A stretch of 64,000 nt of DNA from a virus (IMGVR_UViG_3300042988_001700:34489-98488); one strand, 5' to 3'; positions 23,007 to 60,700 are shown, numbered from the stretch's first letter. Translations and numbers: made by a program. The notes: a model not told the origin generated them from the letters alone.

Positions 23007-23079
23007 AGTCCCCCACCGGAATCGAACCGGCCCGTCACGGAAGTACTACCTCCGATTCCATCACCAGAATGTGAAGGAC
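23007..23079 (-). tRNA. degenerate tRNA-like cloverleaf (anticodon position AGT, no CCA)
   Basis: acceptor GTCCTTC/GGGGGAC, D-stem ATTC/GAAT, anticodon stem CGGAG/TTCCG with 7-nt loop GTAGTAC, T-arm GCCGG-TTCGATT-CCGGT; lacks U8 and a canonical D-loop. Confidence 0.5.
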
Positions 23080-34266: not shown

Positions 34267-34772
34267 TTTTTACCAACTTTCCTTTTGGTTGATTTTTTTG
34301 GTGGAAGAGATGTCATTTTGTTTTTTAACTGTCGTTTTTTATGAAATTCGTATTTTAAAGCATCGGAAATTCTTCTGGCATTGTCTTTTGAAATACTGTA
34401 TGCTATCATCCCAGAATCAATATCCCTCAGAGAATCTTCCTTTCTCTTTTCTTCTAACCGAATTCGCTCGATTATGAGTCCCTTTAAAAGAACAAGGTAA
34501 TTAATTTCGTCGCCGAACTTCTCGTCAAGCATAGCCATTGTGGGCAATATTCCGTTATCGATATCATCAATGATATCTTCGACGGAAACGCAATGCTTCT
34601 CCTTCATTCCGGCGAGTGCTCTTTCTGGAGAAATATTCCTGCGGCGGCCAGCAACTTTGAAATTGTGAAACCTTTCGCCATTGCGAACATATTCTCCAGT
34701 TTTCTTTTGTAGAGACGACTTCATCTTTTCGATGCAATCATCAACAATTAAATTAAAGTCTTCATTGTTCAA
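34263..34772 (-). CDS. hypothetical phage protein (possible nucleotide-modification-associated family)
   Basis: KTGEY...FHNF...DEINYLVLL. Confidence 0.5.
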   Translation of the reverse strand: MNNEDFNLIVDDCIEKMKSSLQKKTGEYVRNGERFHNFKVAGRRRNISPERALAGMKEKHCVSVEDIIDDIDNGILPTMAMLDEKFGDEINYLVLLKGLIIERIRLEEKRKEDSLRDIDSGMIAYSISKDNARRISDALKYEFHKKRQLKNKMTSLPPKKSTKRKVGKK

Positions 34773-37522
34773 ACAGAAACCTCCTTTAAAATACTTACGT
34801 TTAAAATTTCAGGGCATTGCCTGCGATATTTCTTGCAAATAACAAATCCAAGGGCAGCCTGCTTAGCCGTCAAACTAACTTTATCGGCCAATTCATGGCC
34901 TATAAAAACATCGACTTTGCTGAAACCCATTCCATTACGAATGTTTGCATGGTCGAAGTCAAAACCTTTTAACTTTAACAAGCAACCATGAATAATACCA
35001 ATGTCATTCTCGTCAATCTTTTTCGATATTTCTTCTATCTGGTCCCTCCGAACTCTTTTTGTGGCCGGAACACTGCTATCATCTTTCGGGTTCGACATAC
35101 TATCAACAACGTCGAAATCATGTTGATTTATGTCTGCAATAACATCATCGACACATTTTCCACCACCATCCAAAGCAGCACTTATAATATTCAACTTATC
35201 GACAACCGTTGTTGCAAGCTTCTGGTCCAGCGACCCATCCAAAGCTATGTAATAGACATTCGTGCTGTTACCGGTTGCCCCTATTCGGTTGCACCGAGCC
35301 TCAACCTGGCTCATATTGGCCGGAACCCAATCAAATTCGACGATAGCAACGTTAGAAGCTGCGGTTAGTGTTATTCCAACCCCGGCAGCGGTAATTGATC
35401 CTACGAAGACTCTGACCGACTTGTCGCGCTGGAAAGCGTCAACCGAAGCCTGTTTCTCTTCAATGTTATTCTTTCCCGTCAAAACAACTGGATTGTATTC
35501 AGACAACCCAGACATCAGCCCATCTATAACGTCATGGTGCCAAGCGAAAACAGCTATTTTATCAACACCAGAATCAAGCATATCTGAAATCGACTCTACA
35601 GCATAAGGAATTTTAAGCACAGCCGTATCATGACGCACCTTCGCCATAGAAGTAAAGGCGATCCTGTTTCCCTCTTTTAAATTGTCTATCGCCTTTAAAT
35701 ACTCTTCCTCTCCCTCAGATTTTGCCATTTCAGCAAGAACCTGCAACCTCTCAACACTCTCAATAGATTTTTTCTCTATTTCTTTTTCAATTTCTATCTG
35801 CTTTCGACACCCATCGGCAGGAATAACCATGATCGTTCGCCTAATTAAAGGAAGATCCTTCAAAACGTCGCACTTAAGCCTTCTTACCATACACGAAGAT
35901 CTAAGCTCCATCTGAAGCCTGTCAAGATTGCTGGCACCTTTAACTTCCCACCCGTACCTTGTTTGTTTTCCCTCGCAAAAGGTTTCCACGTATGAAACCC
36001 AATTCGGAAACGCTTTTGGCGCTATTCCGTGAACTAATGGCCATAACTCAATAGGGCGATTTGGTATAGGCGTACCGGTCAATGCAACTATGAATTTAGC
36101 GCCAATTGGTGGAACATAATCTTTATGTCCTTTTTTTTGTCTACCCCAAACAGAATATCCGCGTTGAGATTTTTTAGACTTTACCATTTGGCATTCATCA
36201 ATTATAAGAGAGTCTAATTCTCCAATAGCATCAATGCTTTCTCTCCAAGCATTAAGTATATTGTAATTAATTATTATCCACTTAAAATCATCAGAAAGGA
36301 TATTATTATGAACAAAGTTTGCATTTCTGAATCTCTCGCGAAGAACATATCTCAGGACATACAGATCGGAAAGACTACACTTAGAAAGGCTGGAGATAGC
36401 ATTGGAATCCATCACTCCACCCTTAAAAATCATCTTTGCAAGCTCAACCTTCCATGGCAACCACCCGCTATCATCGTCAAAAACGGATTTTCCTTTTGGA
36501 GATCGAGAGTAGATATTCCCACCATCATTGCATCCGTCGAAAGAATCAAGCAAGGGGAGTCCTACACAACCGTTTGCGCCTCTATTGGAATACATATTTG
36601 TGAACTCAGAAGACTTAGTAAGAGGCTTGGAATTTGTGTTAACAAGCAGCGGCCCGATAGCCCGTTTACTGTCCCCCAAAGACCCATCGACCTCTCCTAT
36701 CTTGCGGGAATCATCGACGGAGAAGGATGTGTTAGTCCTCCCAGAAAAAGTCATACAACATGGTCTATTTGTGTTTATAACACCTATAAGCCCGTTATTG
36801 ATTGGTGTTGCTCTTTCGGAGGGTTCTCCTACGAAAGGAAACCCCGTGGCTTCGGAAATCTGACTCAATATGGATGGCATATTAATAGGAAAACCGATGT
36901 TATCGCATGCCTCTCCGCCATTACTCCTTATATGAAAATCAAGAGATTTAAGGCAATTCAAGCCCTCTCTTTCCTCCTTGATAAGCCCATTAGTTTTATT
37001 GAGATTAACTATCCTCCCGCGTGATACATCCCATTTTGAAATTTCTCTTGTCCAATTTACACGCAAACTGGCAGGGCACACAACAAGAACTTTTTTGAAA
37101 GAATCAATTGCGTTTATAACTCCAATAGCCTGAATAGTTTTGCCTAAACCTATTTAGCCCATCTCGTCGCCGAACAAAACGCCGGAACAAGATGGAATTA
37201 GCCCTCCTTTCGAGTAAATGTTTACAGCATAATTTATTCCAGCCACTTGATACGGAAGATACGACAAACCTTCAGGGCATGGAATTTTAGCGCTCGACTC
37301 TGACGCCATAGAATCTTCAATTGCCTTCTTTTTATCAGCTATTATTTTGTTAATAGCTCCAGTAGCCTTTTCGTCAGCGCTTCCCATTAATTTTACTGCC
37401 ACATTAACATTGTCGGTCCACCACTTTATAATGGGGTCAAAATTCATTCCGGCAGCTTTTGGAATGTTTCTGGATTCGTATCCACCACACCACACAAAAA
37501 TATTATTTGAATAAGTCAACAT
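34769..37522 (-). CDS. SNF2/SF2 helicase, interrupted by a 9-nt stop insertion (~37151-37159) and an antisense HEG (~36302-36988)
   Basis: LPYQ...DEMG*IGLGKT, VVCPASL, DECQ, LTGTP, RRLK, GVGITL, QVEARCNRIG all in one frame. Confidence 0.85.
36308..37024 (+). mobile_element. single-motif LAGLIDADG homing endonuclease with N-terminal HTH-like region, antisense inside the helicase
   Basis: DLSYLAGIIDGEGCV...ICVYNT...WHI...LSAITPYMKIK; AAAGGA RBS. Confidence 0.85.
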
Positions 37523-37561
37523 GGTCTAAATATAACTAATTGGGGTTATCGTGTCAATACC

Positions 37562-38896
37562 TTAGAAATTTTTTCCGTCAACGTCAGAAACTTCGTCAAA
37601 TCTGCCGTATTCTCCGACGAACATAAACTTTGAATTGACGGTTCCAGTTTCTCCATCACGCTGCTTTCCGACAATTATTTCGGCGACACCCTTTGGAGCG
37701 TCTTTTTTATACTTGTCTTCTCTAAACGGGAAAATAACAATATCGGCATCCTGCTCTATTTCGCCAGACCCCCTAAGATCCGCCAGTGTTGGTCTGTTAT
37801 CTCCGCGCTGTTCGACAAGCCTGGATAGTTGAGAAAGAGCTATTACTGGAACGTCAAGCTCCTTTGCAAGCGCCTTAAGCCCACGGGATATTGCGCCTAT
37901 GGCAAGGTTGTTGTTTTCGTACTTTCCTTCGTGCGGCATAAGCTGAAGGTAGTCAACAACGATCAGTTTTAGATTATTGTTTTTTTTCATTCTGCGGCAC
38001 TTTGCTTTTATCACAGAAAGAGTATTTGAGCTATCGTCGTCAAGGAAAAGAGGGTACTTGTCAAGGTTTGAACACATATCGTTTATCTTACGCCACTCTT
38101 CTGTTCCCAAGTCTCCTGTTCGCATCTTATAAATACTTATGCTTAGTGCTATAGCAATCAATCTACGCATAAGTTGTTTGTTTGACATTTCATAAGAAAA
38201 AACAGCGCAATAAGCACCTTGGACAGTCATTGCACTATAAATCATACATAGCGCAAGTGCTGTCTTTCCCATAGATGGACGACCAGCAATAATTATAAGG
38301 TTTCCACCTTCCATTCCACCGATCATCATATCAAGTCCTACATACCCCGTTGTTAGGCCAACAATTTGACCCCGCATTCGTTTGTCTAAGTCGTCAGTAG
38401 TTTCAGCCATAACTTCACGTATCGTTTTCTCTTCTCCCGAAAACCGAGATAACGATACTTCAGATATTTCCTTTTCTGCCGAATCTATTATTTCAGAGCA
38501 ATCGGCATCAGGATCAAACGATCTATTTGCTATTCCAGTAGAAACAGATATCATCTTACGAAGCATCATCTTATCTTTTAATATCTTTATATGACTATCA
38601 ATCGAATTAAAAGACTGAACATCGTATGCAATATCGCTCAGATAGCATTCTCCGCCAACGCTCTCAAGCTCTCCAATCGACCTCAATTTTTCAGATACGG
38701 TAAGAACGTCAACGGCAACACCCTTAGAAAACATTTCTACGATTGCACTAAAAATTGTTTTGTTTGCAGAAGAATAAAAATAATCTTCATTTATAAAACC
38801 AACATTGTCTGCTATTATCGAAATGTTTGTCATCATAGAAGCGATAACTGATTTTTCGATATCTATTGCACTTGGAGGAACTCTTAAGTGTTCCAT
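37562..38896 (-). CDS. dnaB: replicative DNA helicase
   Basis: PPSAIDIEKSV, AGRPSMGKT, VVDYLQL, LSQLSR, DLRGSGEIEQDAD, KQRDG. Confidence 0.96.
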   Translation of the reverse strand: MEHLRVPPSAIDIEKSVIASMMTNISIIADNVGFINEDYFYSSANKTIFSAIVEMFSKGVAVDVLTVSEKLRSIGELESVGGECYLSDIAYDVQSFNSIDSHIKILKDKMMLRKMISVSTGIANRSFDPDADCSEIIDSAEKEISEVSLSRFSGEEKTIREVMAETTDDLDKRMRGQIVGLTTGYVGLDMMIGGMEGGNLIIIAGRPSMGKTALALCMIYSAMTVQGAYCAVFSYEMSNKQLMRRLIAIALSISIYKMRTGDLGTEEWRKINDMCSNLDKYPLFLDDDSSNTLSVIKAKCRRMKKNNNLKLIVVDYLQLMPHEGKYENNNLAIGAISRGLKALAKELDVPVIALSQLSRLVEQRGDNRPTLADLRGSGEIEQDADIVIFPFREDKYKKDAPKGVAEIIVGKQRDGETGTVNSKFMFVGEYGRFDEVSDVDGKNF

Positions 38897-45763: not shown

Positions 45764-48700
45764 TTAATTATTCCTCCCCTTGTATGTTAAATTGTACCAT
45801 GCGTTTGCTCTTCCGAGCTGTCTTAACTCGCGCGGAGCCAGGGAAGCTATAAAGTGGTTCCTGTATTTGTCCGGCAACGCGGCTAAAGGATCTGCGTTTC
45901 GAATGCTTGTGCTTATGCCATCTATCGTACCTCCTGCTTTAAGGTATTCTTTAAGCCAACGTATAGCTGACTTCTGGTCTTTATACACTATCGATTTCTT
46001 ATAATAATATAGTGCATTCGCCTTGTTTGTTGGGTCATTTTGATTGACTTCATACTTGTTGTCGTCAAGGAATTTATAAACCTTTGATTTTATCTCCTGA
46101 TAAGCCGCTTCGCCGGGATCTGTGATATAAACAACGGCAGTCGGAATACTGTTGATAAAACCCTTGCTTGGTTTTCCGGCAAGATACCTATACGGGATAT
46201 CCATAGCCATCGTTCTCGCAACATTCTCCCATGGATCTCGTATCGGGGAAGGATTAAAAACATTCGGGTAAAAAGATTTCTTTGTCAATAACTCAACGGG
46301 AGACTTGATCATTGGCGTCAAAGATGTCCCGATTCTCTGGAATGGGGCAACCGCCGCCTCTTTGATCATATCAGAAAACTTCTTGGAGCCGCTTGCAAGG
46401 TCCGAAACGTCATAGGGCAGGTCTTCTAAGCCTATCCACGAAAGCGCGTCAGAAAGCGCCCCTTGGAATCTTAAGGAGGCAATTGTCCCATCGCTTCTTC
46501 GTGACGTCAAATTTCCGTTCGCCAGCTCTTCGATATTCGGCAATAACAAGTGCGCTTGCCGTCTCCGCTGCATAAGCTCTTCTTTTTCGTCATCCGGGAA
46601 TAATTGATTCCAAAGCATGACCGCTGCATACAGAGCGCCAGCTTTAACCATAAGCATTGCCGAAGAGAATGCGGCGTTCTTCCCAAGAATTGCTGCGCTC
46701 GTAAGACCAAGTTTCGCGGTCCTGGCTGCACGGGTTTTTGAATCACGGTCCCCTTCGTGCGGAGCGTTTTGCATTAGGCGATAGTATCTTGGTGCGTTTA
46801 TTTCAAGCCAGCTATAAAACGGAATTAGGTACCTTCTAAGCCACTGGCCGCCTTTCGATATGTTGCCGTAGTCTCCAATAAGCTCACGCGCCAGCTTTGC
46901 CGCCTTGTCATCTTGGTCTGTGATTTTTTCTATCGCCAGCCTGTTGGATGCGCCGAACGTAGTATCGGGATACTTCTTGAGATGATCGACAAAAAATCTA
47001 TAAGCAGCAAGCCTCAAAATATTTTCTCTCCATTGAGTGAAATTCTTGGTTGTCTGCCAATATCTTTCGATCATACCGACTTTTTCTCCCGAGAGAATCT
47101 TAAGGAACATGTCTTTGTTCAAATCAGTTATCTCGCTAACCGAAAGCCCGGAACTTATTACGCCTTTTTTGATAAGTTTCAACATTTCTTCTGTCGGTGC
47201 TTTCCCCTTAAGATTGTAACCCCAAAGGTCTTTTGCTGCTTTTTGAGCATAGGCCATTATTTTTGGGTCATAAGCCATAGCGATATCCAAATCCCCAGAC
47301 ATATTATTGATATTGTACTTAATAACACTCGGAGGATTGAGAAGTCTCCAAATTTTCCAAGAATTTTGGATTTTTTGAAGTGCTTTCGCTATAAAATTGT
47401 CAATCGGGAAATCAACAACCTTGTCAAGCGTAGCTGCAAGTTCTGACGGCAATGCCCACGATTGGCGTTTTCTCAGGGCAAGCAATGTCTGAAGATCCTG
47501 TTCCTCTACAACCTGGCTCCCATTTTGATCTATTTGAGAAGCAATTTTGTCAGGAATAGTTGTCGCTTCGTACATTCCAAACCCTCTCTTTGGCTGCCAT
47601 TCGACATATCCTTCAGGTAAAATGTCCTGCCATTTCTTAAATTGTGCGCCGGTGGTAGATTTAATCAACTCTTTTCTTTGGCTAATTGCCTTGAATATCA
47701 TTCCGGCGTACTGTGAACCATCAAGCCCCTTGTCCATTAAATAAGAAAGAAATTCCCACCAATCCTCGTCAGATCCGGCAGTGGAATCGACATCCATTTC
47801 AACGCCACTTTTTTTAGAGAAGTATCCGCTTGACAACTTCTCTATAATCAAACTGTATTCTGGTGCATCTATTTCATCCTTTGATGCCATTTTTTCAAGC
47901 TGACTAACAGCAATGGCAATACTTTTTCGATACGGCATAAATGGATCGAACATGTCGTAGTCGGGCGATTTTTCGTCTATTCCGGCTGCCTTTGCCAATC
48001 TCTTCTTTGTAAGTTCATTATTCATTTCAGTAGCATCTTGCTTCAGTTGGCCAGATATATCTGCCACCATTTTCATCTTTTTGAGAGAATCTGCCGCTTC
48101 GAGCAATGCTATTCCTTGGGCAACAACCTCAAATTCAGATTCGGTATATTTCGTGTTGTACGGCTTATCGTATCCAACGCGACCGTTCTGCCAACCTTTT
48201 CTTTTGGTCCTGAAGTCAGAAGAAGTGGTTCCAGTTGTAAGATATTCCTTTGTTTCCATAGCTTCAATAACTTGGTGGTGGAAATATCTATCATCCTTTA
48301 ATACGTCTTCATGCAAGAATTTCTCTCTAACTAAAGATTCCCTCAAGTCCCTCATAAATCGATTTCTTAAATCAAGAGCATTAGAAATATCCGGATTAAG
48401 AGCAGCAAGCCGCATAGCCTCTTTATTATCAGCCTTGACATCGTCAATGCTTTGGTATCCAAACGGAAGCTTCTTTGGTGTTCCGTCAGGAAATGTATAT
48501 AATCCGGATTCGATGTCTTTCAGAAGATCGGGTAGTATTATGTTTCTTTCGAAAACAATCTGCTTTTTAGGACCCATCCCGGCGATAATGCCTTTTACCA
48601 CATTGTATGCACTCGCCTTTGAGAATTCTGGAACAGACTCAAAGTGCCTTAAAATATCTATCTCTCGCGCAAAAACAACCGGGTCAAGAAGAGGATAGTG

Positions 48701-51700
48701 GCGTGTCATATCGTTTTTGGCAGTCGTAATAGCCGCCATTGTTTTAGCGTAAATGGTATTCAGGTTCTTTTGGAGACCACGGGATTCATTCATTATTTTG
48801 TCAACGTTTTCGTCAACCGACTTGAACCCGCCACCTTTGATATTATATTTGGCTCTCGGTTCCCACAATTGAGGGGTATTTTTAATGTTTTTAATTGACT
48901 CACCATTATTAGTGCTCGATCCACGCGCATCTCCAAAACCCAAAACACCAATTTTTCGAGCGCTATCATAAGATCCGTCTTTATAAACATAAACAATGTC
49001 ATGTGTTATATCATATTCCGGTTCAGAAGACGACCGAGTGCTTTTAATTATTCTCGAACCAGTCATAAAAATTTTTCTATCATCGGTTGCAATAACTGCC
49101 CAAGTCCCACCAGATTCTCTTACTCTCTGATAGACTCTGCTTGGAGCTAATTGCTCTATTCCTTTTATTGGATACCAAGCTACAACCATATTTTGATTGT
49201 CTAAAACAAGAAGACTTGTATGGTTTTCTCCCTGAAAAGTATCGCGTGTTAAGTTGGCAACGTCGATAGCCTGTCTTATTTGTGGTCGATTTCTTGTCGC
49301 TTCGTTAAAGTCTTCTTTTGGTATATCAAAACTTATTGTTTGAGCAGTAGGTAATCCTCTGTGATCAATTTCTTCACCAATAAACAAGAATCTGTCATGA
49401 TCAAGAACAACATGCCCAGAAAAACCGGGAATATTATTTATAAAATATTTTGTTATAAACTTGTCGGGATCGCTTGCTTCCATTCTACCTGACGGGTGAT
49501 TATGAACAATGAAATACTTTGTTGCTCCAAGTCTTTCCATTCTATTTTTTATAATGTAATTATTTGCAGAAAGACCAGTTCTGGTTCCTACTACAGAACT
49601 ATTTGTCAAACCAGAAGACATTGCGTTATGCGCAAGAATTTTACCGTTATCATCAGTATAAATAATGTGGAAATGCTCAATTCTTGGATGGCGGAACACA
49701 GAAAACATATTGGCAAGTTCGGTCGCATTATTTATTACCCTGCCGCGAAAATCGATTCTTCTATGTTTCTTCCAATCCCCGCGAACAGTTGTTGCGCCAG
49801 CCTTACCGAGAACAGGAGAAATAGGCGATTTAGAAAATTGGTTTTCTATTTCAGTATTTGCTTTTTCAACTTCCTCTTTCGACCCAAACACTATTTCAGT
49901 ATCATTTTTCGACATCGGGGTTCCAAAATCCAACTCTGTTTGCACACCCCAATCTTTCAAGAACTCCCTTTGTTCGAACAGCGATTGCCCATTATAAACA
50001 ACGTCATTTTTAACGGCGTCATTAATGGCTATCGATTGCTGCGAAACGCCAGTGCCGATATTGATATTCTCAACCTTCAAACCCCACGGCTTTCCGTACT
50101 TTTCGTAAAACTGAGAAATCTTTTTATCATAAAGATTATAAGCCCAATCTCCACCGACACTAAGGCTTTCGCCGTCCAGCCTTGTCCAATCCCTGTATGC
50201 TTTATCTTTTACTTTTGTGCCTTCCGAATTAAATATTCTTTTTGAGATATCTTTTCCAAGAAGACGAGACACCTCTTCAATGCTTAAATCCTCTTTATAA
50301 ATGCCGTCGTTTTCGTCTATGTGTGGTGCATCGATATTATAGGTTTCATCGTCGTTCTTTTCCCAATCGATATATTTTACCTGCTTTTGCAAGTCATATC
50401 TATCTGCTGTCTGCCTTCCAGTTATCCACGAAACTTTGTCGTATCCATTTTCGGATGCGTAACGCAATGCAAATTTGAGAACAACGTCCATCCAGTTATT
50501 TGCGAATGGCATAGGAAGAACACCTGGGCCATAAGACTTTTTGAATTTTTCAATAGCCTCTTCTCGCGTATCTCCAGTTACAAAATCAATACCAGATATA
50601 CCGGCTCTCCACTTATCTCCAGACTGAAACACCCTATCGGGAACTCTATTTGTTGCTGCCACATTCCCTTCGCGCAATTCTTGGGACCATTTTGACTGTA
50701 TTTCCTCAAGGAAGAGAACTTTGTTTCCTTCGCTATCGGTTCTATCGTCCATGCGAATGTGGGCATAAACGTTTTTTCCGAGACCATGTGGTTCATCGTA
50801 TTCAGCAAACATTCCAAATGTGTCTTCTGGCAACGAAAGAGTAACTTCTTTATAATTTTGATATCCCGGCAATGTTAGATCGTCGTATTTGTTGGGGCCA
50901 TATTTCGTTTTTCTTGGTTCATATTTATCGTACCATTCTTGTGCAAATTTTTTTGCAGCATTAACATCAGATTCATTCTGTATAAATTCTTTATTATAAT
51001 AAATAGCAAAAGAATCTTCCAATTGCCCAATCTTTCTGATTTTTATACTCAAATTTGTGTTCGAGTAAATAATAGGGCCACTAAGTTTATTTGGTTCTTC
51101 CCATTCTATTTTTGGTATATCATAATCATTAACGGCTATTTTAGAATCAATCATGTTTCCGCTGATGAATTTAATTATTTCGTCTTTTGTGACCGATTCT
51201 TTTCCTGAAAACTCTTGAGACAATCCAATCCAATCAACCTCCGCTTTTTTTACTCCGGGCTGATTGAGAATCATAGCGACAAGCTGACTTCCAGTTCCCT
51301 TTTCCTGTTTTAAGTCTTGTGCTGCACGGAGTAGGGGAGAATAAAAATAAGGAACGGCAGACCGATACTCTTCGACCGAAGCGTATTTTTTAATCTTTTC
51401 AGGATATTTTGCGGGAAGCTTTTCGCGCATTTTGTTTAGTCTATCACCAACGTCACGCGGATCTCGCGTATAGAACGTTCCAGTCGTAACTGGATCGGAA
51501 AAAGACAAAGCAACAACCCGGTCAGCTATTCCAAGCTGGGGGCCATCAAAATGTATTCCGTATTTGTCGGCTGCTTGCTTTGCCTGTTCAATAAGACCCT
51601 TGTCAAGCTCGCTAAACTTTCCTTCTTCTGAAGCCATCTTTTCTGCGCGGTCTTCTTCGTAATCAACAATATCGCCATAAGGACTTCCCGGCTCGAACAT

Positions 51701-54700
51701 AACACCATTTTGATTCAAGAATCCTTTAATATCCTCTTTCGATACGGTCTCGTCGCCTTTGCTGGAAAGATAATCTGAAAGTCCAGTGAATTTCATTTCA
51801 TCCATTTTTGTTCCGCGACCGCTTGAAGGATCGAGCATCTTGAGCCACTGGCTTGCGGGAGCCTTTGGCATATCGATAGAATTGACTGCTTGCATAGCAT
51901 TGCTATACAATGATTCTCTTGCGCCATAAGAAGCGCCAGGTTCTCTGAACATGTTGGCGGTATCGGTTGAATATTCGCCACTATTATTTGTAGCCGACTT
52001 TATTTGTTTTGGATTAAAAGCAATATAGACATCTGACAACGGGGCACGCTTGGTATCTGTGTAAGTGTCTTTTGTGTTTCTGATTATTATTCCGTCATAA
52101 CCATTTTCTTTTGCAAATTCAATCTGTTCTCTTTGAGCCTTCGGACCCCCGCGCTTTCCCCACTCAACGCCGCCAGCGTCAATAACCATTGGGTTCTTAA
52201 GCGAAAGATATACTCCAAATACACTTGGCTCTGCGTTTTGATAATCAAAAGCCATTTTGTCATTAGCGTATGTTCTGGCAGTATTGTTGTGGTTTGTAAA
52301 AAAATACGCTCTTTCTTTTAATGTATTAGTCTGTCCTTCGGGAGAAAGAGTGTCAAAATATTGTTCTTTAGCGGTTTTAAACACCCCGTTTTGTTTTACG
52401 TCTCTTGCGTCAGGAGTTCCGTGATAAACAACCAGCGGCATGCCTAAATCATCAACGACTTTACTTGCTGTTTCCGAATTTGATTCCCAATCGCCAAACC
52501 ATTTTTTAAACTCTGTTGATTGAATATCTCCGCCATAAGAAGCGCCAGGCTCAAACAGGCTCAACTGTTCTGTTCCGCCAACTATTCCGGCACCACCTTC
52601 GAACATAGGAAGGCCAGTAACGTCTGGCGATCCACCGATACGCTTTTCGTTTTTCTTTCGAATCTCAGCGGCAATAGCTTTTTGAACAGGGGTTCGCTTA
52701 TCCTCAAAACCAGTTCCAGAGAATAAGTCACCGGTTTCGTACTTTGATTTTGGCTCCTCCGTAATTAGATCGTCGTTGACTAACCCTTGATACGGGCTAA
52801 TCATTTTTATCGTTGCGCCAATTTGAGGAAGGCTATCGTCAATGAACTTGTTGACATTGTCCTTTGCCTTATTTGATGATGACGACGGCGCGTCGGTAGC
52901 AGTAAGGTCCTTGACTGCCTTATGGACAAGAATCATTTCTTTGATAGAATTAATTCCAGCTTCGTCTTCGAATGGAATAAACCATTTTTTATTCCAGCTA
53001 CTAATGTATTCGCTAAACGCCCCGTATCTTTTGAGTTCGTCAAGATTAGGAGACCATAAATTTCTAAGCTCAATACGCGGCTGGTTGTGAACGTTAACCG
53101 GCGCTATTTGCCATCCGTTATCAAGCTCAACTATTCCATGGTCGTACTTCACAAGATTAAACAGCTCTACTGCCGACAATTGCGAGAAAGAATTCCCAAT
53201 ACCAAGCCTTAACTTTATACCGGCAATTTGTTTCTGTTTAAGGCTTATGCCAAGATATGTTTCGTTATCTCCAGTTGTTGCCTGAACAACGGTCTGTTTT
53301 TCGTGAGAAGCAAAAGCAGAATCGTTGTCAATTTTTTTAGGATAAATCTTATCGTAAATTGGATAAATAATCCCGGTAAGAATAGTATGCTTTTCCGTTG
53401 TGTATTCAGGAATTTCACTTAGTTCCTTTTCCCAAAGAACCTCCGCGTCTCCGCGATTAACTTCCATGAGACCATGATTAAACTCTTCGTTATCCAGACT
53501 ATGTCTTATTCCCTTTGGATTCGTTAGCTGATATACTTCTTTCTCTATTCCATTTGTAGTAATTTTTACCGTAATAACAGAGTATATTCTTTTGCTTTTA
53601 ACGTTCTGATAATATCCAACCCAATAATCAGTGAAGTCTTGAATATGAGAAACCTCGAACGACAATTTATTGCTTGGAACCTCACCGGCCAAGTATACCA
53701 AGTGCGTTTTTGCCTTCGAAATTGGATCTACATAAATCAATTCGGCAGGCTTGTCTATTCTAAGGTTCTTTGCACGTATCTTTTGAACACCAGAATCGAA
53801 ATTTCCCTTTGCTTTAGCGTTTGCAATATTCTCTTGGTATTTTTCATAAAACTTTTCAAACACTTCATTTTGGCGGCCAATTGGAAGAACGAGTATTCTA
53901 TTAAGAAATTTATCTACAGTTACGTCTTCTTTCGCCTCTCCCTTTTTGTTTAACAAACCCATTTCGGCAAGCGATTTTCTTGAAAGTCCAGTAATGACGC
54001 TTTGTAATGCGTTTTCTCCGTATTCGTCGGTAAGATCCTCTATTGAGAACATTCCACCACCAAGAGACTCTCTGTTCCCGCTGGTCATAGCGCCAAGGCT
54101 GGCAAGCCTACGAGACACTGCATTAACAAGTCTTTCTTGTCCCTTGATATCTGTTTTAACCAGCTTAATAATCGGCGGGACTTCTTGGTTTGATCTATGA
54201 ACCCTACCAAAAACCTGCATCTGAGTGTCTGCCGACCATGATAATTGCATTGCGTAAAATACGCGCTGCTGCTTATTTTCTGCCTTTTTATCGGAATGAA
54301 GCGATATCCCGGTGGATGCCGCTGCCGATATGATTGCTACACGCTTCTTTCCGCTCTGAAACTGCTTAGTTTCGTACTCGTTGACATCCTTCGACGTTCC
54401 ATTCTCGTTTATTCTTCTGACATATTTTTGGTTTTTACCAACACCTTCAAGCCTCATTTTCCTTCCGGATATTTCAGCAATATTATCGGCACCAAAAGCA
54501 TTGACAATCCTATCAAAAGGATTCGGAGGAAGGTTCAAGTTTGAAATAATCTCAAGAAGTCTTTGCTGTTCCTGAAAGTTTTCTCTGTTTATTACCGGTT
54601 CCCCTTGCGCGTCAAGCTCCATAACTGTTTCGTCTTTGCCGGTAACAATGTTCTTTTGTGTTACATATTGATATATCGGAAAACTTGTTTTTACCATGCT

Positions 54701-57700
54701 GGCAATCATGTCTTTTGAACTAAAATCCATGTCGTCAATATCTTCAATTCCACTTGCCTTTGCTGCGGCAACGCTTTTCTTGGTCAGTCCCTCGTTCGTG
54801 CTAAACATGCTGATAACAACTGAGCGCCCTGCCGCAAGCTGTTTTTTTGCGTCATTAACAACCTCGTCATACTGAAGAGAAGTCATTAACTGCAAAAAGA
54901 ATCTCTGTTGAGTAGAATAGAACGCCGTATAATGTCCAGATCCTTTTTTCTTTTTCTCACCCGAATTTTCGGCAGCATTCTCAAACGCAACCAATAACTT
55001 CGACCACAAATCCGCTGCATCATTATATACGTTTCGCTCTCCCTCGGTAACGTTGTGCTGTATTGTCTCAAATTTTACCCCGGCATAGCTAATTGATCTG
55101 CTTATATAAGATCCTATAGCCTTAAGGTCTCTTGTAAGCGCCTCCATTGCGCCAAGCCCACCGCGCGTCATAGCTGTCAGGAAATCCATGAAATCAGTAA
55201 ATGGAGCACCGGCACCCCACATTCCAAGTCTACTTAAATAAGCCATGTTTCGCGCAACCGTAGCAGACGTAGCCGACATATTGAATATGCGTGCGTTCTT
55301 ATACGCTTTTTTAAGCATAAGACCGACATTCCCGCGCTCTGAACCTGCCTTTGAACTTGCCTCTCCGCCGATACCAGCACCAACGGCGTTTTTCATAAAA
55401 TGAGATTCGTCGAAGACAATAACGCCGTCGAAGTCGTCTCCAAGCCAATCTTGTATTTGCTTCAATCTCGCCTGAGTAGAAATTCCATTTTTATCTTTTT
55501 CGCTTCCCGACATAAGTCCGTATGACGTGAAAAGTATTCCGTCTTTATCTGGTAGCTTATCCCATGTTTTTGTATCGGCCTGAGAAATTACTTCCATTGG
55601 AACGCCTACGTCTGAAACGTCTCGTTCTGCCGAAGGCTTTAAATCAAAATTAACACTAATCCAAACTGCACGTTTTCTTCCGTGCATGAAATTATCATAA
55701 ATAACACCTACAGCGGTCCTACCTTTGCCGACCCCTGTAGAATCGCCTAATAAGTACTCCGCGCGTTCGCCACTTAATAATCTTTGGTTGTGTCTTTGCC
55801 CTGCATATACGATAGCCTCCATCTGAACATCAGAAAGCCTTCCCTCTTCGATAACTTCCTTTGGGATCTTTGGGGTATAAACGACATCGGGAGCCTCTGT
55901 CGCGGCAAGCGCCGTAGATTGAACGATGTTTCCCGGGTGTTTTATTGTTCCTTCAATTGTGGCTTTTTTGACAACGTAAGGAGAGTATTGCGAATCTTCC
56001 TCTTGCTCTACGTCCTTTACTCCGCCACTTCCTGGAACGCCGCTCGTTCCGTTGCCTGGCCCCACTGGACTAAGCCCATCGCTAACTGCATCGCCCATGC
56101 GCGCATCGATGATTGGTCTGTCAGTTGATTCAGGACTTCCGCTTTCGCTTGTTCCGGAAATTGCTCCGTTAGGATCTCCAATACCGCCCCGTGTATTCTT
56201 GGATCTTCCACTACCAGATCCCACTCGTCCTGTATCTCCAGAAAGTCCGGTTGTGTCTCGTTCTCCAAGAGAAGATCCATCAGGGGGATTAACGACGTTG
56301 TCTGATTGGCTGCGAAGTTTCTTTTTGTTAGATCGAACATTGCCGCCAGCTTTTCCTTTGCTACTTGATCCAGCTTTTCCGCCAATGCGTTCATTTATGT
56401 CCTCCTCTGCGATATCTTTTAACAGGTCTATAGTTCCTTCAGGCGTTAGTCCTTCAGATCGAACAACATTCGCCATTCTTTCATTTCTATTCATTCCGGG
56501 AGTCGGACCCGTTTTATCGATAATCAATATTTGATTGTCGAATCCGGTCCCGTATTTTGCGTAAGCCTTTCCGTCTATACCGATATTCGCCCGAACGTCG
56601 TTTTTCTGCTCCATCTTATCCCACCACGCACTAAACGATGGTCTTTCATGTGCCATTCCGCGACCAACGATGGCAACTAACCTACCACCATCCCTTACCC
56701 TGAGAAGGGCGTGCGTTACATGGCTTGCGCCAACTTCGGTATTATGGGAAGCTGTTCTTCCTCCGGTAGCAGAGAATGGAGGATTCATTATAACGACATC
56801 GGCCATTATTGTCTGAGGAAGATTGTTGTTCAGCTTTTCGGCGTCAACGCTATACGTTTCGAACCCCTGCATATTCAACAATCCAAGTCTTCTTGGAGAT
56901 ATCTCATTCGCTACAACCTTCGCACCGGCAATGTGCGCCATTGTCGCAATATTCCCTGTCCCGGCGCTTGGTTCTATAACGGTCATGCCTTTTGATACCC
57001 CGGATGCCCAAACAGCTATAAACGCCTCCGCTGGTGGCGTGGAGAACTGTTGGAACTCAATCTGTTCTTCAGTACGGTCAACTTGCCTCGGGATTATATC
57101 ATTAAGATCGTTAAGTCTCTTTACCGTATCTTCTGGGTTGCTGAAATCGACGATTCCAGATTCGAGTATGTATTCATTGATAGCGACTTCAAGAGCGTCA
57201 TACATGTCCCTTGGATCGTATGCGCCATCTCCCCGGGTTCCGCCAAATGAGCTGTCTGCCATTTTTGTCAACTGAGGATTCCCAAATTTTACACCGGTAC
57301 GAAGTTGCTGCTTAATAGTCTCGATCAAAGCACCGGTTCCGGGAACAACGTTTTTATCGTCTACCCGCGAAATAGGAACGTTAATAGGAGGTTGATTTTC
57401 TTTTTTGTCTCCACCTACTTTTGCGTATGTTGGAACGAAATTTTCGTAATCGTAGAATAATGTGCTTCCTTTAAATTTTAATTTCGCCGATCTTCCCGAT
57501 CCTATAACTTCTTCAACCTCTAATACATCAAGTTTGAAAAGAGTAATAGGAATTCCAACGTTCTCTCTTGCTTTCGCCAAGTCTCCAACTTTTGGCGTCC
57601 ACTCTTTAAGCATCGCCTGTGTTCTTGCGATATCTTCTTGAACCAAATCTGGATTTATTTCAACATCGTATGTCTTTTGGAAATCAGCAATACTGACATT

Positions 57701-60700
57701 CCAGTCTTGAATAAACCAATTGTTACCAACTTTATTTTTAACAAAAACCTTTTCGCCGATTACATCTATTCCGGTTAGAATGTATTTGTTCCCGTTAGAA
57801 CGAATAAATTCATCTCCAAATCCAATAGTTTTCTTTTCTTCTTCTTTAGGAACTTCGATTATTTTGTCAACATTTATAGCATGCTCGTTATCAACGGAAT
57901 AATCGTCAATCAATCTGTCTTTTGCCATTTTGGAAAGAACCTTTTCAACATCAGGTTCATCCTTTACGTCAAAGTCCCAAGTTGAACTAACTGAATTCCA
58001 CCTTCTCGGAATACCGTATTTTAAAAGGCCGCTCTTCAACGCTTCAGTAACTTGTTTTCCGGGATATTTCCCAAAAGTTATTCCTCTTAAGTCCAACACA
58101 TTCATGTGTGGATGAATAGTTGCAGATACTCCAACCTTCTTAACTTCTGGTTTTTCTACCTTCTTCTCTTGTTTTGCGACGAAATTTGACAGCAAAACGC
58201 CATTGCGCGGATCTATTCCACCATTAACCTTGTAGTAGGCGTCGTAAGACATCTCGACAACTTTTTGAAAACTTGCTTTAGCGGCTGATTCCGGAATCAT
58301 TTCAGCTATCATTTTTGCGATAGAATCAAAATTTGTCATTCCGCCTTCGATCATATCTGCAACGGCATCGAACGCAAGGTCTTCGTCTTCCTGGGAAGCC
58401 TTTTCGTATGAAGCACCTGGCTCTTTTAATGAATATTCAGCCGGTTCCTCCTGCATCCTATCACCAAGTTTTTTGAATTTCTCCATTGCACGCTTAATAG
58501 ATTCGTTCTGTTCGGGAGAAGCCTCTTTTTCAGTTTTACCATGAGAGGGTTTGGCTACTATTATGTGTTTATCAATGAAATCTTTTTGTGATTCCTTTTC
58601 TGTTTCTTTGCTAAACGGCTTTCTGAGAGTTATCTTTCCTTCCAGAATACCATGTCGTACCCTATCTGATATGTCCTGTTTTAAAAGCCAAGAAGACATT
58701 TCTGGCCAATCTTTTCCAAGATCATCCTTGAGGCGATCAATGTCAATCGGCCTAAGCGTTTCGGGAGAATCGGCCACTAACTGAAGGCGCGACAAATAAT
58801 TCATCTTTGGAAGCGGAAGAAGCGCATCTCTGCTTTTCGTAAGATTGCTTTTGTCTTTTGACGACTGAGCTTCCTCTTCCTGCATTCTCTTTAATTCCGC
58901 ACGAGCTTTTTCTCTTGGGGTAAGTTCTTTTTTGGCTGGTTCTGGTATCTTTGTCAACGATTCGTCTAATTTTGTATTTGTTGACTTTTCAAATTCACCA
59001 ACACTTTTTGCCATGAAAACCCTTGAGACAACCATACCTTTAAGAGATAGGTCAATTGCGTTTATGTTAACAGATCCGTCTTCGCTTACAGAAACGCTCT
59101 CCAGCCTATATTGTCGTCCATTAAAATCAAATTTAGATCCTATAGATATCTCTTGTGGCTTTCTTAAGCTTTCCTCTTGGCTTTTTGTTAGTTTTTTGAG
59201 CTGTTCCGGCCTTACGGTTACGAATGGATCTTTAATGTCGTCGTGAAATTTTACATTTATTACATCGTCTTCGGTTTCATCAGTTGAACGCATAAAGCCA
59301 TAAACAGTTCCAAGTCTCCCCAAATATTGAACCTTGTCTCCTATCGAATACTCTCCAAGAGTAAATTTTTTTACGTCTGGTGCCTTTTTGGTAAAAACTT
59401 TCGACAGGGAATCTTCTTGTTTTTGCTGTTCGGCAGTCGGTTTGTTTTCTGCGGCTTTGTCTTCTTTTTTATTTGAATAAGTTTGTTCTAAATCAAGGTT
59501 TGTTAGTCTGGAAAATTTCTTTTTTGCCCAATCAATCAACTCGACATCCGTAGGATTGTGGGCATCGGTCCAAACCTTTAACATTGTTCTATACGCTGTT
59601 GCGTGTGATCTGTCGTATTCTTTCCCAATTGCATCCGTAATCAACAAATGAACTTCTAGTGAGTGTTGTTGTTTTTTTGCTGATTCTGGGATTTTAGTTA
59701 AAGATTCATCTGTTTTTTTCTTTTCAAACGGTTTGCCGGTAAACAGCGCCTTTGTTCCCTTTAGCGTTCCCGGCAATTTTACACCGGTAATCTCAGTAAA
59801 CAATTTCCTACTATTCTTGTTAGTCAGATGAAGAATATCGCCATACTCGCCAAGAGCAATAGCTTTAAGAACCTTTTTTGCTGCAATCTTTGAAGGCTTT
59901 TCGCGGATTTCTCCACCTGTTTTATCGACAAGCCATTGCGCCCACTTATCAATCTCTGCCTGGTCGGGAACATATTCTTGCTTTGCAACTTCTTCCCCCT
60001 GGGCAATACCCTCTTCTATAGCCTTTTTAGCATTATGAGAGGCATTCTTGTACATCTCTGCTATTTCGTCACGATTTGTAACAGCATCGATAACTAACTG
60101 TCTGAAAGAATCGTAATCCCCGGGAATGAGTTCTTCCGACATTCTGTTTTCTTCTGTCCAGACGCGCTTTCCTTCGTCGGTGGAAAAGTATTCGGTAAGT
60201 CCTTTGAAGTATTTCCTTTGCTCCGGAGACATTCTGCTTTCGCCAAGGTCTTTTATGGCTTGCTGATATTTCTTTCCGGTAACGTCGCCAAGATTAAAAG
60301 CGTCTCTGAACGCAAGATTTAGATCGTACTTATATGCCTCAAAGTTAAGATCGCTTAACTCTTCATCATTAAGATTGTCCGTCTTAAAAGCGGATCTTCC
60401 GGAAGACCGTATTGGTCTATTCCCGGTCGATTTAACGATGGCGGCATCGTCTGTTTTTGCTTCTTTTTGGATTTCTGGCGCAACAGTCGCTTCGCCTTCA
60501 CTTGGGAGGCGTACTCCGGCGTCACCGGCTCCGGTTCGCTGTAATTCATTTTGTACTGTTTCTGTTCCATTCCTTTTTCCTCCTGACCATGTTTGTGAAC
60601 GGCCACTTTCCTTTGCCTTATATAATTGTTCGTCTGCATTAGAAATTCCAATTCCGTGACCAGCCGAAAATGTTACTCCCGTAAGCTTCCCGTCAGCAAA

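Follow-up and report, generated by a model that had tools for sequence, protein, structure and literature searches.

How can a helicase be made at full length when a stop codon closes its reading frame in the middle of motif I? The question is raised by a gene in IMGVR_UViG_3300042988_001700:34489-98488, a stretch of 64,000 nucleotides (nt), here called the window, which is part of a complete 98,488-bp freshwater phage genome with terminal repeats in IMG/VR. The gene encodes an SNF2 helicase, the sole SNF2 protein of this genome, and starts at 37522 on the minus strand, downstream of a DnaB-like helicase gene. After 122 codons the frame reads GAC GAG ATG GGC TAA ATA GGT TTA GGC AAA ACT (37170-37139), i.e. 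DEMG*IGLGKT, and dropping 9 nt yields DEMGLGKT. From sequence comparison we consider it probable that a homing-endonuclease cassette inserted itself into motif I of this helicase at some time in the past, that these 9 nt represent its 3' end, and that the full-length protein is produced by a short ribosomal hop.

The stop-bearing insert in the helicase gene

The insert is real and not an assembly artefact. Two sequencing runs of the probable source sample (about 26x) gave Logan contigs that are identical to the window over 36000-37600, and a contig of a different study (a 2019 sediment metagenome; X3 contig) spans the TAA site unchanged; the read-level basis consists of assembled contigs, with two of the three runs coming from the probable source sample. 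An IMG/VR contig with 86–94% nucleotide identity, L002, carries DEMG-TAA-ATA-GGT-TTA with the same 18 nt, and the identical 9 nt are also present in L286. A preliminary description of the locus, made from the sequence alone, was therefore exact in reporting a 9-nt stop-bearing insert whose removal restores DEMGLGKT, and the assembly artefact that it had envisaged is refuted by the agreement of the contigs from both source-sample runs and the other study.

The same description held that the helicase frame is intact beyond the stop, and this is borne out. The frame is open past TAA to 34769 with matches to the Pfam domains SNF2-rel_dom and Helicase_C, and positions 1-74 of SNF2-rel_dom align across TAA. 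The description did not remark that this frame, between motifs Ia and II, runs for about 230 codons antisense to a LAGLIDADG-like open reading frame (ORF), to which we return below.

TAA appears to be an ordinary stop codon in this phage. It is the commonest true stop codon, closing 33 of the 55 long minus-strand ORFs. The only tRNA gene of the genome is tRNA-Thr(AGT) (window 23007-23079, minus strand), and no suppressor tRNA was found in the genome. A genome scan for further in-frame interrupted genes gave only ordinary adjacent genes; hence neither genome-wide use of a stop as sense nor a suppressor tRNA, either of which would indicate reassignment or suppression, was found. An Rfam scan of 35800-37700 identified no group I or group II intron and no other family. 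With blastn the locus had no match among 50,697 phage records, and tblastn of the N-terminal part gave a sole match, to Rhodothermus phage RM378, in which the helicase is intact.

Recurrence of stop inserts between DEMG and LGKT

A phmmer search with the 122-residue N-terminal part yielded 625 relatives, mostly full-length SNF2 helicases. Among the 150 best matches, however, 19 representative clusters (groups at 50% identity) terminate exactly at ...DEMG or ...DEMGL, and several further proteins terminate about 10 residues past the Q motif, at ...FGD. The spacer preceding DEMG has 21–29 residues in all 19 stop-ending clusters, often with K-G-G-x-x-P-S, whereas intact relatives, the nearest full-length ones included, have a 12-residue spacer and an unbroken DEMGLGKT.

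Scans of viral and metagenome contigs with DNA patterns identified 21 distinct related loci with stop-bearing inserts of 5–9 nt, and two additional sites were found in bacterial metagenome-assembled genomes (MAGs). In a narrow-pattern scan of genome contigs there were two true sites only, both in MAGs and none in a cultured host, and the exact window-type pattern was found in viral contigs only in L002/L008. The gaps are 5, 6, 7, 8 or 9 nt long, all three stop codons are used, and skipping of the gap gives DEMGLGKT at every site, including those with out-of-frame gaps of +5, +7 and +8. The putative take-off codon directly abuts the stop at 21 of 21 related sites, as it does in the window (GGC TAA, 37159-37154). 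At 18 of these 21 sites, the triplet before the resume codon, which would serve for landing, has the same first two bases as the take-off codon; a match of this kind was not demanded by the scan pattern and has a chance of 1 in 16 for each site. In the window this triplet is GGT, directly 5' of the resume sequence TTA GGC AAA ACT. The suggestion in the preliminary description that the matched glycine codons GGC and GGT form a short bypass element is thus supported by comparison.

Two classes can be recognised by their take-off codon. The Leu class follows the scheme CTN-stop-CTN in nine distinct codon/stop combinations, and its natural forms include CTT TGA CTA and CTT TAG CTA; CUU-stop-CUA is reportedly among the strings tested in the study of synthetic stop-hops considered below. 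Other members are CTT TGA C CTC (+7), CTT TGA CC and CTT TGA AT (both +5) and CTT TGA ATA. In the Gly class, 9-nt gaps occur in GGC TAA ATA GGT (the window) and GGC TGA ATA GGC, next to GGC TAA AT GGT, GGC TGA AC GGC and two similar sites (+8) and GGC TAA GGT (+6). The TGAAT gap after CTT is found in L245, L258 and L291; a +2 slip onto TTG in the +5 gaps (TGACC, TGAAT) would give one extra residue, and the TGAATA gap of L210 is in frame.

A homing-endonuclease cassette in the relatives

In many related loci the helicase is split 16–24 codons upstream of GAY GAR ATG (encoding DEM), and a same-strand endonuclease ORF ends there. This upstream ORF is of the HNH_3 type in six loci (L110, L130, L186, L245, L279 and L300), DUF559/Vsr-like in two (L272 and L289) and an Endonuclease VII (Endonuclease_7) in one (L224). 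The downstream piece begins with ATG, often behind a Shine-Dalgarno-like run, and continues with a short leader and VLIADEMG(L) up to the stop. In these relatives the stop insert is the 3' end of a cassette with an HNH_3, DUF559/Vsr-like or Endonuclease VII gene, an endonuclease other than the LAGLIDADG enzyme to which the preliminary description tied the window insert.

The origin of the motif copy is best seen in a pair of loci with nearly identical helicases, the intact L039 and L136. The latter has 45 additional nt, a recoded VLIADEMG and CTT TGA C; its motif copy differs from that of L039 at 6 of 8 wobble positions, and the native sequence is rejoined exactly at CTC GGC AAA. This implies that the motif is conserved at the level of the protein and not of the DNA. 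In a second pair, L289 has a DUF559 insert of 587 nt, immediately 5' of the KGG leader, that is lacking in L242; over their 127-nt 3' flank, which contains the stop insert, the two loci are identical. Leaders often carry the motif K-G-G-x-x-P-S-x-x-G, and have a ratio of nonsynonymous to synonymous differences (pN/pS) of 0.96 in an ungapped comparison across cassettes. K-G-G is often encoded by AAA GGA GGN (37202-37210 in the window, and alike in others), a Shine-Dalgarno-like sequence about 45 nt before the stop. In DUF559-type cassettes (L289, 136-1125; L188; L272) the frame of the helicase N-terminal part is open, up to 330 residues, through the endonuclease gene read in the +1 frame.

In the window no endonuclease gene lies directly upstream, and the N-terminal part is one ORF of 122 residues. 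By their sequences the window, L002, L011, L136, L231 and L242 appear to be endonuclease-less, fused forms of the cassette, and the window insert seems closest to the DUF559-associated Gly class. That the window also holds a recoded, element-encoded motif is inferred from its 12 extra codons and the shared anatomy, the direct comparison being that of L136 with L039.

Free-standing endonucleases are not the only invaders of this site. In L029 (2917-5532) an HNH-bearing intein occupies the exact boundary of DEMG and CGKT (DEMG/C...HN/CGKT), indicating that motif I is a target of several kinds of selfish element. In its HNH motif this intein is similar to the free-standing enzymes of the cassettes.

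Sequence constraint and distribution of stop alleles

Both sides of the stop appear to be under selection for their protein sequence. Over the 21 cassettes, pS is 0.65 and pN 0.14 (ratio 0.22) for the nine codons that precede the stop, and the ratio is similar, at 0.19, for the ten codons that follow the gap. When the window is compared with L002, the ratio of nonsynonymous to synonymous substitution rates (dN/dS) is 0.20 for the N-terminal part, 0.16 for the 38 codons after the gap and 0.12 for 463 C-terminal codons; relaxed constraint downstream of the stop, named in the preliminary description as a sign of a pseudogene, is thus not seen, in a pair that is weakened by possible recent exchange. 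Downstream ORFs of 415–584 residues reach their own stop codon in nine distinct loci with a stop insert, and further ones stay open as far as the contig extends; wherever the contig is long enough to judge, the downstream ORF is intact in most loci.

In a tree of the C-terminal part, stop alleles are scattered among intact ones: 12 changes, of which at least 5 are forced, are counted over 14 rows, and the stop alleles cluster no more than with shuffled labels. This distribution fits repeated horizontal gain by homing.

A proposed short ribosomal hop

We propose the following scheme. Read from 5' to 3', the cassette begins with an endonuclease gene and a short leader, after which come a synonymously recoded VL(I/F)(A/G)DEMG and a stop followed by 0–6 bases, with the host junction at the native Gly or Leu codon. 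Recoding and insert together would destroy the target of the endonuclease, by analogy with the MobA element of phage T4. In the window, the endonuclease gene would have been lost, the leader fused in frame to the N-terminal domain, and the stop insert kept. During translation, peptidyl-tRNA-Gly(GCC) would sit on GGC in the P site with TAA in the A site and unpair; the mRNA would then slip by 9 nt, the tRNA re-pair on GGT, and decoding restart at TTA. The predicted product reads ...GDEMGLGKT..., with ...GVLFGDEMGLGK as the expected tryptic junction peptide, and terminating ribosomes would release the 122-residue N-terminal fragment.

The anatomy of the insert, its recurrence, the structure of the cassette and the constraint on the protein sequence before and after the stop are documented by comparison; from these we infer the hop itself, its efficiency and the protection from the endonuclease. 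On balance we are inclined to regard these sites as the first natural 'stop-hops', a widespread class of 5–9 nt bypass in homing-endonuclease cassettes at phage SNF2 P-loop codons, which would be efficient enough for an essential replication helicase even after loss of the endonuclease, and for which the leader may be a cis signal.

Several points weigh against this proposal. The support for bypass is wholly comparative, and three of the 21 sites (L126 with TGACC, L245 with TGAAT and L210 with TGAATA) have no matching landing triplet, so that simple re-pairing does not cover all cases. The codon match could also stem partly from the joining of cassette and host instead of being a decoding signal. 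Furthermore, no stimulator was identified: the mini-hairpin that the preliminary description drew around the stop can be folded on paper (-3.4 kcal/mol), but no better than expected by chance (z -0.37; 55 of 200 shuffled sequences are equally or more stable), it is not common to the other insert types, and none of those has a structure above shuffles either. Unstimulated hops in E. coli constructs are low-level (bioRxiv 10.1101/2024.12.09.627546).

The conservation data call for similar caution. Because the filters accepted only sites with E-M-G after a hydrophobic-hydrophobic-small-Asp/His context, the apparent conservation of the cassette motif is inflated. Between 37085 and 37260 (about 170 nt) the window differs from L002 at 3 positions only, compared to 6–14% in the flanks; this suggests either a recent exchange (a gene-conversion tract) or an additional nucleotide-level constraint on the cassette, and a recent exchange of the cassette would weaken the dN/dS argument for this pair. 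Finally, the helicase copy of the window, with its approximately 230 antisense LAGLIDADG codons, may be impaired regardless of TAA.

Alternative explanations

The alternative that survives best, albeit an unlikely one in our judgement, is that the gene is a pseudogene. A selfish cassette would then have killed a dispensable helicase and would be spreading by homing drive, with flanking frames that are undecayed so far. Homing elements are able to spread even if harmful, and the scatter of stop alleles over the helicase tree, with as many changes and as little clustering as described above, is compatible with such a history, as are the signs of recent exchange in the block around the stop and the second large insertion in the window copy. 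Several observations speak against it: the cassettes are at synonymous saturation and yet have kept the coding of VLIADEMG, the start codon and the exact junction, the motif was recoded and is conserved as protein and not as DNA, and the downstream ORFs are complete in nine distinct stop-bearing loci. In the window, moreover, the affected gene is the only SNF2 gene of the genome, and its frame is open through the antisense LAGLIDADG gene.

Improbable, and somewhat more so, is decoding of the stop by readthrough at the in-frame types combined with +1 or -1 frameshifting at the out-of-frame types, which would leave 1–3 extra residues in the P-loop (here DEMG-X-I-GLGKT). The window insert is indeed in frame, and G-X-I-G-L-G-K-T still fits GxxGxGKT; the four +8 inserts all give L-N-G in the -1 frame, and CTT TGA C corresponds to the +1 shift site of prfB. 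Plain readthrough, however, cannot decode the out-of-frame gaps and is thereby ruled out as a general mechanism; TAA is the main stop codon of the genome, a suppressor tRNA is lacking, and CTT TGA CTA would meet TAG after a +1 shift. In total, three mechanisms and four P-loop lengths would be needed in one protein family, and a single common product is obtained only by skipping.

It is very doubtful that two polypeptides are made, the N-terminal fragment ending in DEMG and the remainder being restarted by termination-reinitiation. Relatives that keep the endonuclease are indeed split further upstream into two ORFs, as are gp39 and gp60 of T4, and in the window an ATA follows TAA. Yet none of the insert types offers an in-frame ATG, GTG or TTG at the site where decoding would resume or close to it; the first candidate start in the window is GTG at 37081, past the P-loop, and the break would fall within the Walker A loop. 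Least credible of all is that the 9 nt are removed or bypassed in the RNA, by a micro-intron or by editing, or that they are a sequencing error. The idea was raised by the clean loss of the gap from the inferred product, and no support for it was found. No intron model matches, the 5–9 nt gaps have no common structure, and three assemblies, drawn from two studies, carry the same DNA.

The LAGLIDADG-like gene as a separate insertion

The preliminary description tied the stop insert to the nearby LAGLIDADG enzyme, whose target it was thought to destroy, and this link does not hold. The ORF matches PHROG 5046 (E 2e-15) and, weakly, the Pfam family LAGLIDADG_3 (E 0.074), and has 146 distant relatives in viral contigs. 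Both L002 and the contig of the second study carry the identical stop insert and are without the LAGLIDADG segment, the latter joining 36205 to 37065 via 160 other letters; the co-occurrence of insert and gene that was looked for in homologs is thus broken, and the 9 nt do not exist for protection from that enzyme. The segment is a replacement, with 859 nt for 160 nt and diverged host-like flanks, and has no match to an intron model. By these comparisons, the LAGLIDADG gene is a separate, later insertion in antisense orientation, absent from the closest relative.

The helicase frame is open through the LAGLIDADG-like ORF because this ORF has no TTA, CTA or TCA among its 238 codons. Such an absence has a probability of about 1e-4 by the codon usage of the genome, and 1 of 313 comparable windows is alike. 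We considered the open antisense host frame as proof of selection, but this is weakened by the finding of an open aligned antisense frame in 6–8 of 80 distant relatives of the endonuclease, mostly without a clear host gene.

Features of the locus

The coordinates of the helicase gene and its parts are collected in the table below. Nearly all genes of the window lie on the minus strand. Outside the locus, an ORF of 5,858 codons at 45764-63340 (minus strand) is very large for a 98-kb phage genome.

Table. Parts of the interrupted SNF2 helicase gene and of the insertions that it carries, in window coordinates
Feature	Position	Strand	Basis
SNF2 helicase N-terminal domain and Q-motif region, residues 1-102, native	37217..37522	-	ORF, translation; phmmer relatives
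Putative cassette-derived leader remnant YSKGGLIPSCSG	37181..37216	-	Extra compared to the 12-residue spacer of intact relatives; L039/L136 and L242/L289 pairs
Putative cassette copy of the host motif, VLFGDEMG, 'HomR'-like, with take-off codon GGC last (37159-37157)	37157..37180	-	L136/L039 recoding; pN/pS
9 nt untranslated under the hop model: TAA (37156-37154), ATA (37153-37151), landing GGT (37150-37148)	37148..37156	-	
Helicase after the gap: LGKT (remainder of motif I), then motif Ia VVCPASLRVNW	37065..37147	-	Translation; alignment with L002
859-nt replacement segment, stop-free in the helicase frame; 160 nt here in L002	36206..37064	-	blastn breakpoints; contig joint 36205/37065
LAGLIDADG-like homing endonuclease ORF, 238 residues, LAGIIDGEG motif, antisense to and codon-aligned with the helicase	36308..37024	+	
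Helicase motif II (DECQ) to C-terminus, stop codon included	34769..36205	-	Pfam SNF2-rel_dom, Helicase_C

Implications and comparison with known systems

If the proposed short hop is true, the natural series of gaps (5, 6, 7, 8 and 9 nt, two take-off tRNAs, three stops) would make the rules of take-off, sliding and landing comparative and experimentally tractable. It would also mean that homing-endonuclease cassettes have, in a second and independent case, come to shield the host gene from re-cutting at the cost of recoding. For annotation, helicase genes that are called split or pseudogene at DEMG/LGKT should probably be joined.

To our knowledge, programmed bypassing has one phage paradigm, T4 gene 60, besides yeast mitochondrial cases. 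The T4 MobA element consists of an endonuclease, an N-terminal extension and an element-encoded homologous region, followed by the bypass, and endonuclease-less derivatives keep the bypass cassette (Bonocora et al. 2011; bioRxiv 10.1101/2022.08.31.505936). The analogy to gene 60 and MobA in the preliminary description fits well, as the same layout is found in the relatives. In T4 mobA/gene 39/gene 60 as in the helicase loci, a homing endonuclease gene is located in a conserved catalytic motif of a gene for DNA metabolism, and the downstream ORF comprises an element leader and then an element-encoded, recoded host motif. Also common to both are a Gly take-off codon, a stop directly after it, a matched landing codon and then a Leu codon, and the retention of the bypass cassette by derivatives that lack the endonuclease.

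The two systems differ in several respects. The host gene in T4 encodes a topoisomerase II and here an SNF2 helicase, and the gap of gene 60 is 50 nt (20 in one clade), compared to 9 nt in the window and 5–9 nt in its relatives. Gene 60 has a stable take-off stem-loop that includes the stop, whereas no structure above chance is seen here. The endonucleases are of the HNH_3, DUF559 and Endonuclease VII types, and there are two take-off classes (Gly and Leu). A tblastn search of 50,697 phage records with an associated HNH_3 protein gave 30 matches at E 1e-6, with no T4-type phage among the 25 listed or in the genus tally shown; homology to T4 MobA or the gene 60 cassette was thus not seen among the listed matches, no direct alignment with T4 having been made. 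In the window, the endonuclease would be gone and the leader fused to the upstream domain, and bypass is predicted here from sequence comparison.

Stop-hops with matched codons have been shown in synthetic constructs, and for natural ones a 2016 review states that 'no occurences are known' (PMC5009743); the later gene 60 literature that we searched makes no mention of helicases or of short natural hops. The E. coli constructs of Weiss, Dunn, Atkins and Gesteland (1987), insofar as that review (PMC5009743) describes them, share with the present sites the matched codons around a stop and the use of 9 nt for one amino acid. By the same account they were engineered, low-level and without a biological role, whereas the sites described here are natural and recurrent, and lie in an essential motif on a putative mobile cassette. 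In the window, unlike in these constructs, the landing codon is separated from the stop by one additional codon (ATA). HNH inteins in helicase P-loops, as in L029, have in common with the cassettes the site, the kind of endonuclease and the rescue of host function after invasion; their rescue proceeds by protein splicing, whereas the window has 9 nt only and no Hint domain. By analogy, the element in the window would thus resemble a gene 60/MobA cassette combined with a synthetic stop-hop, minus the long gap and the stem-loop of gene 60.

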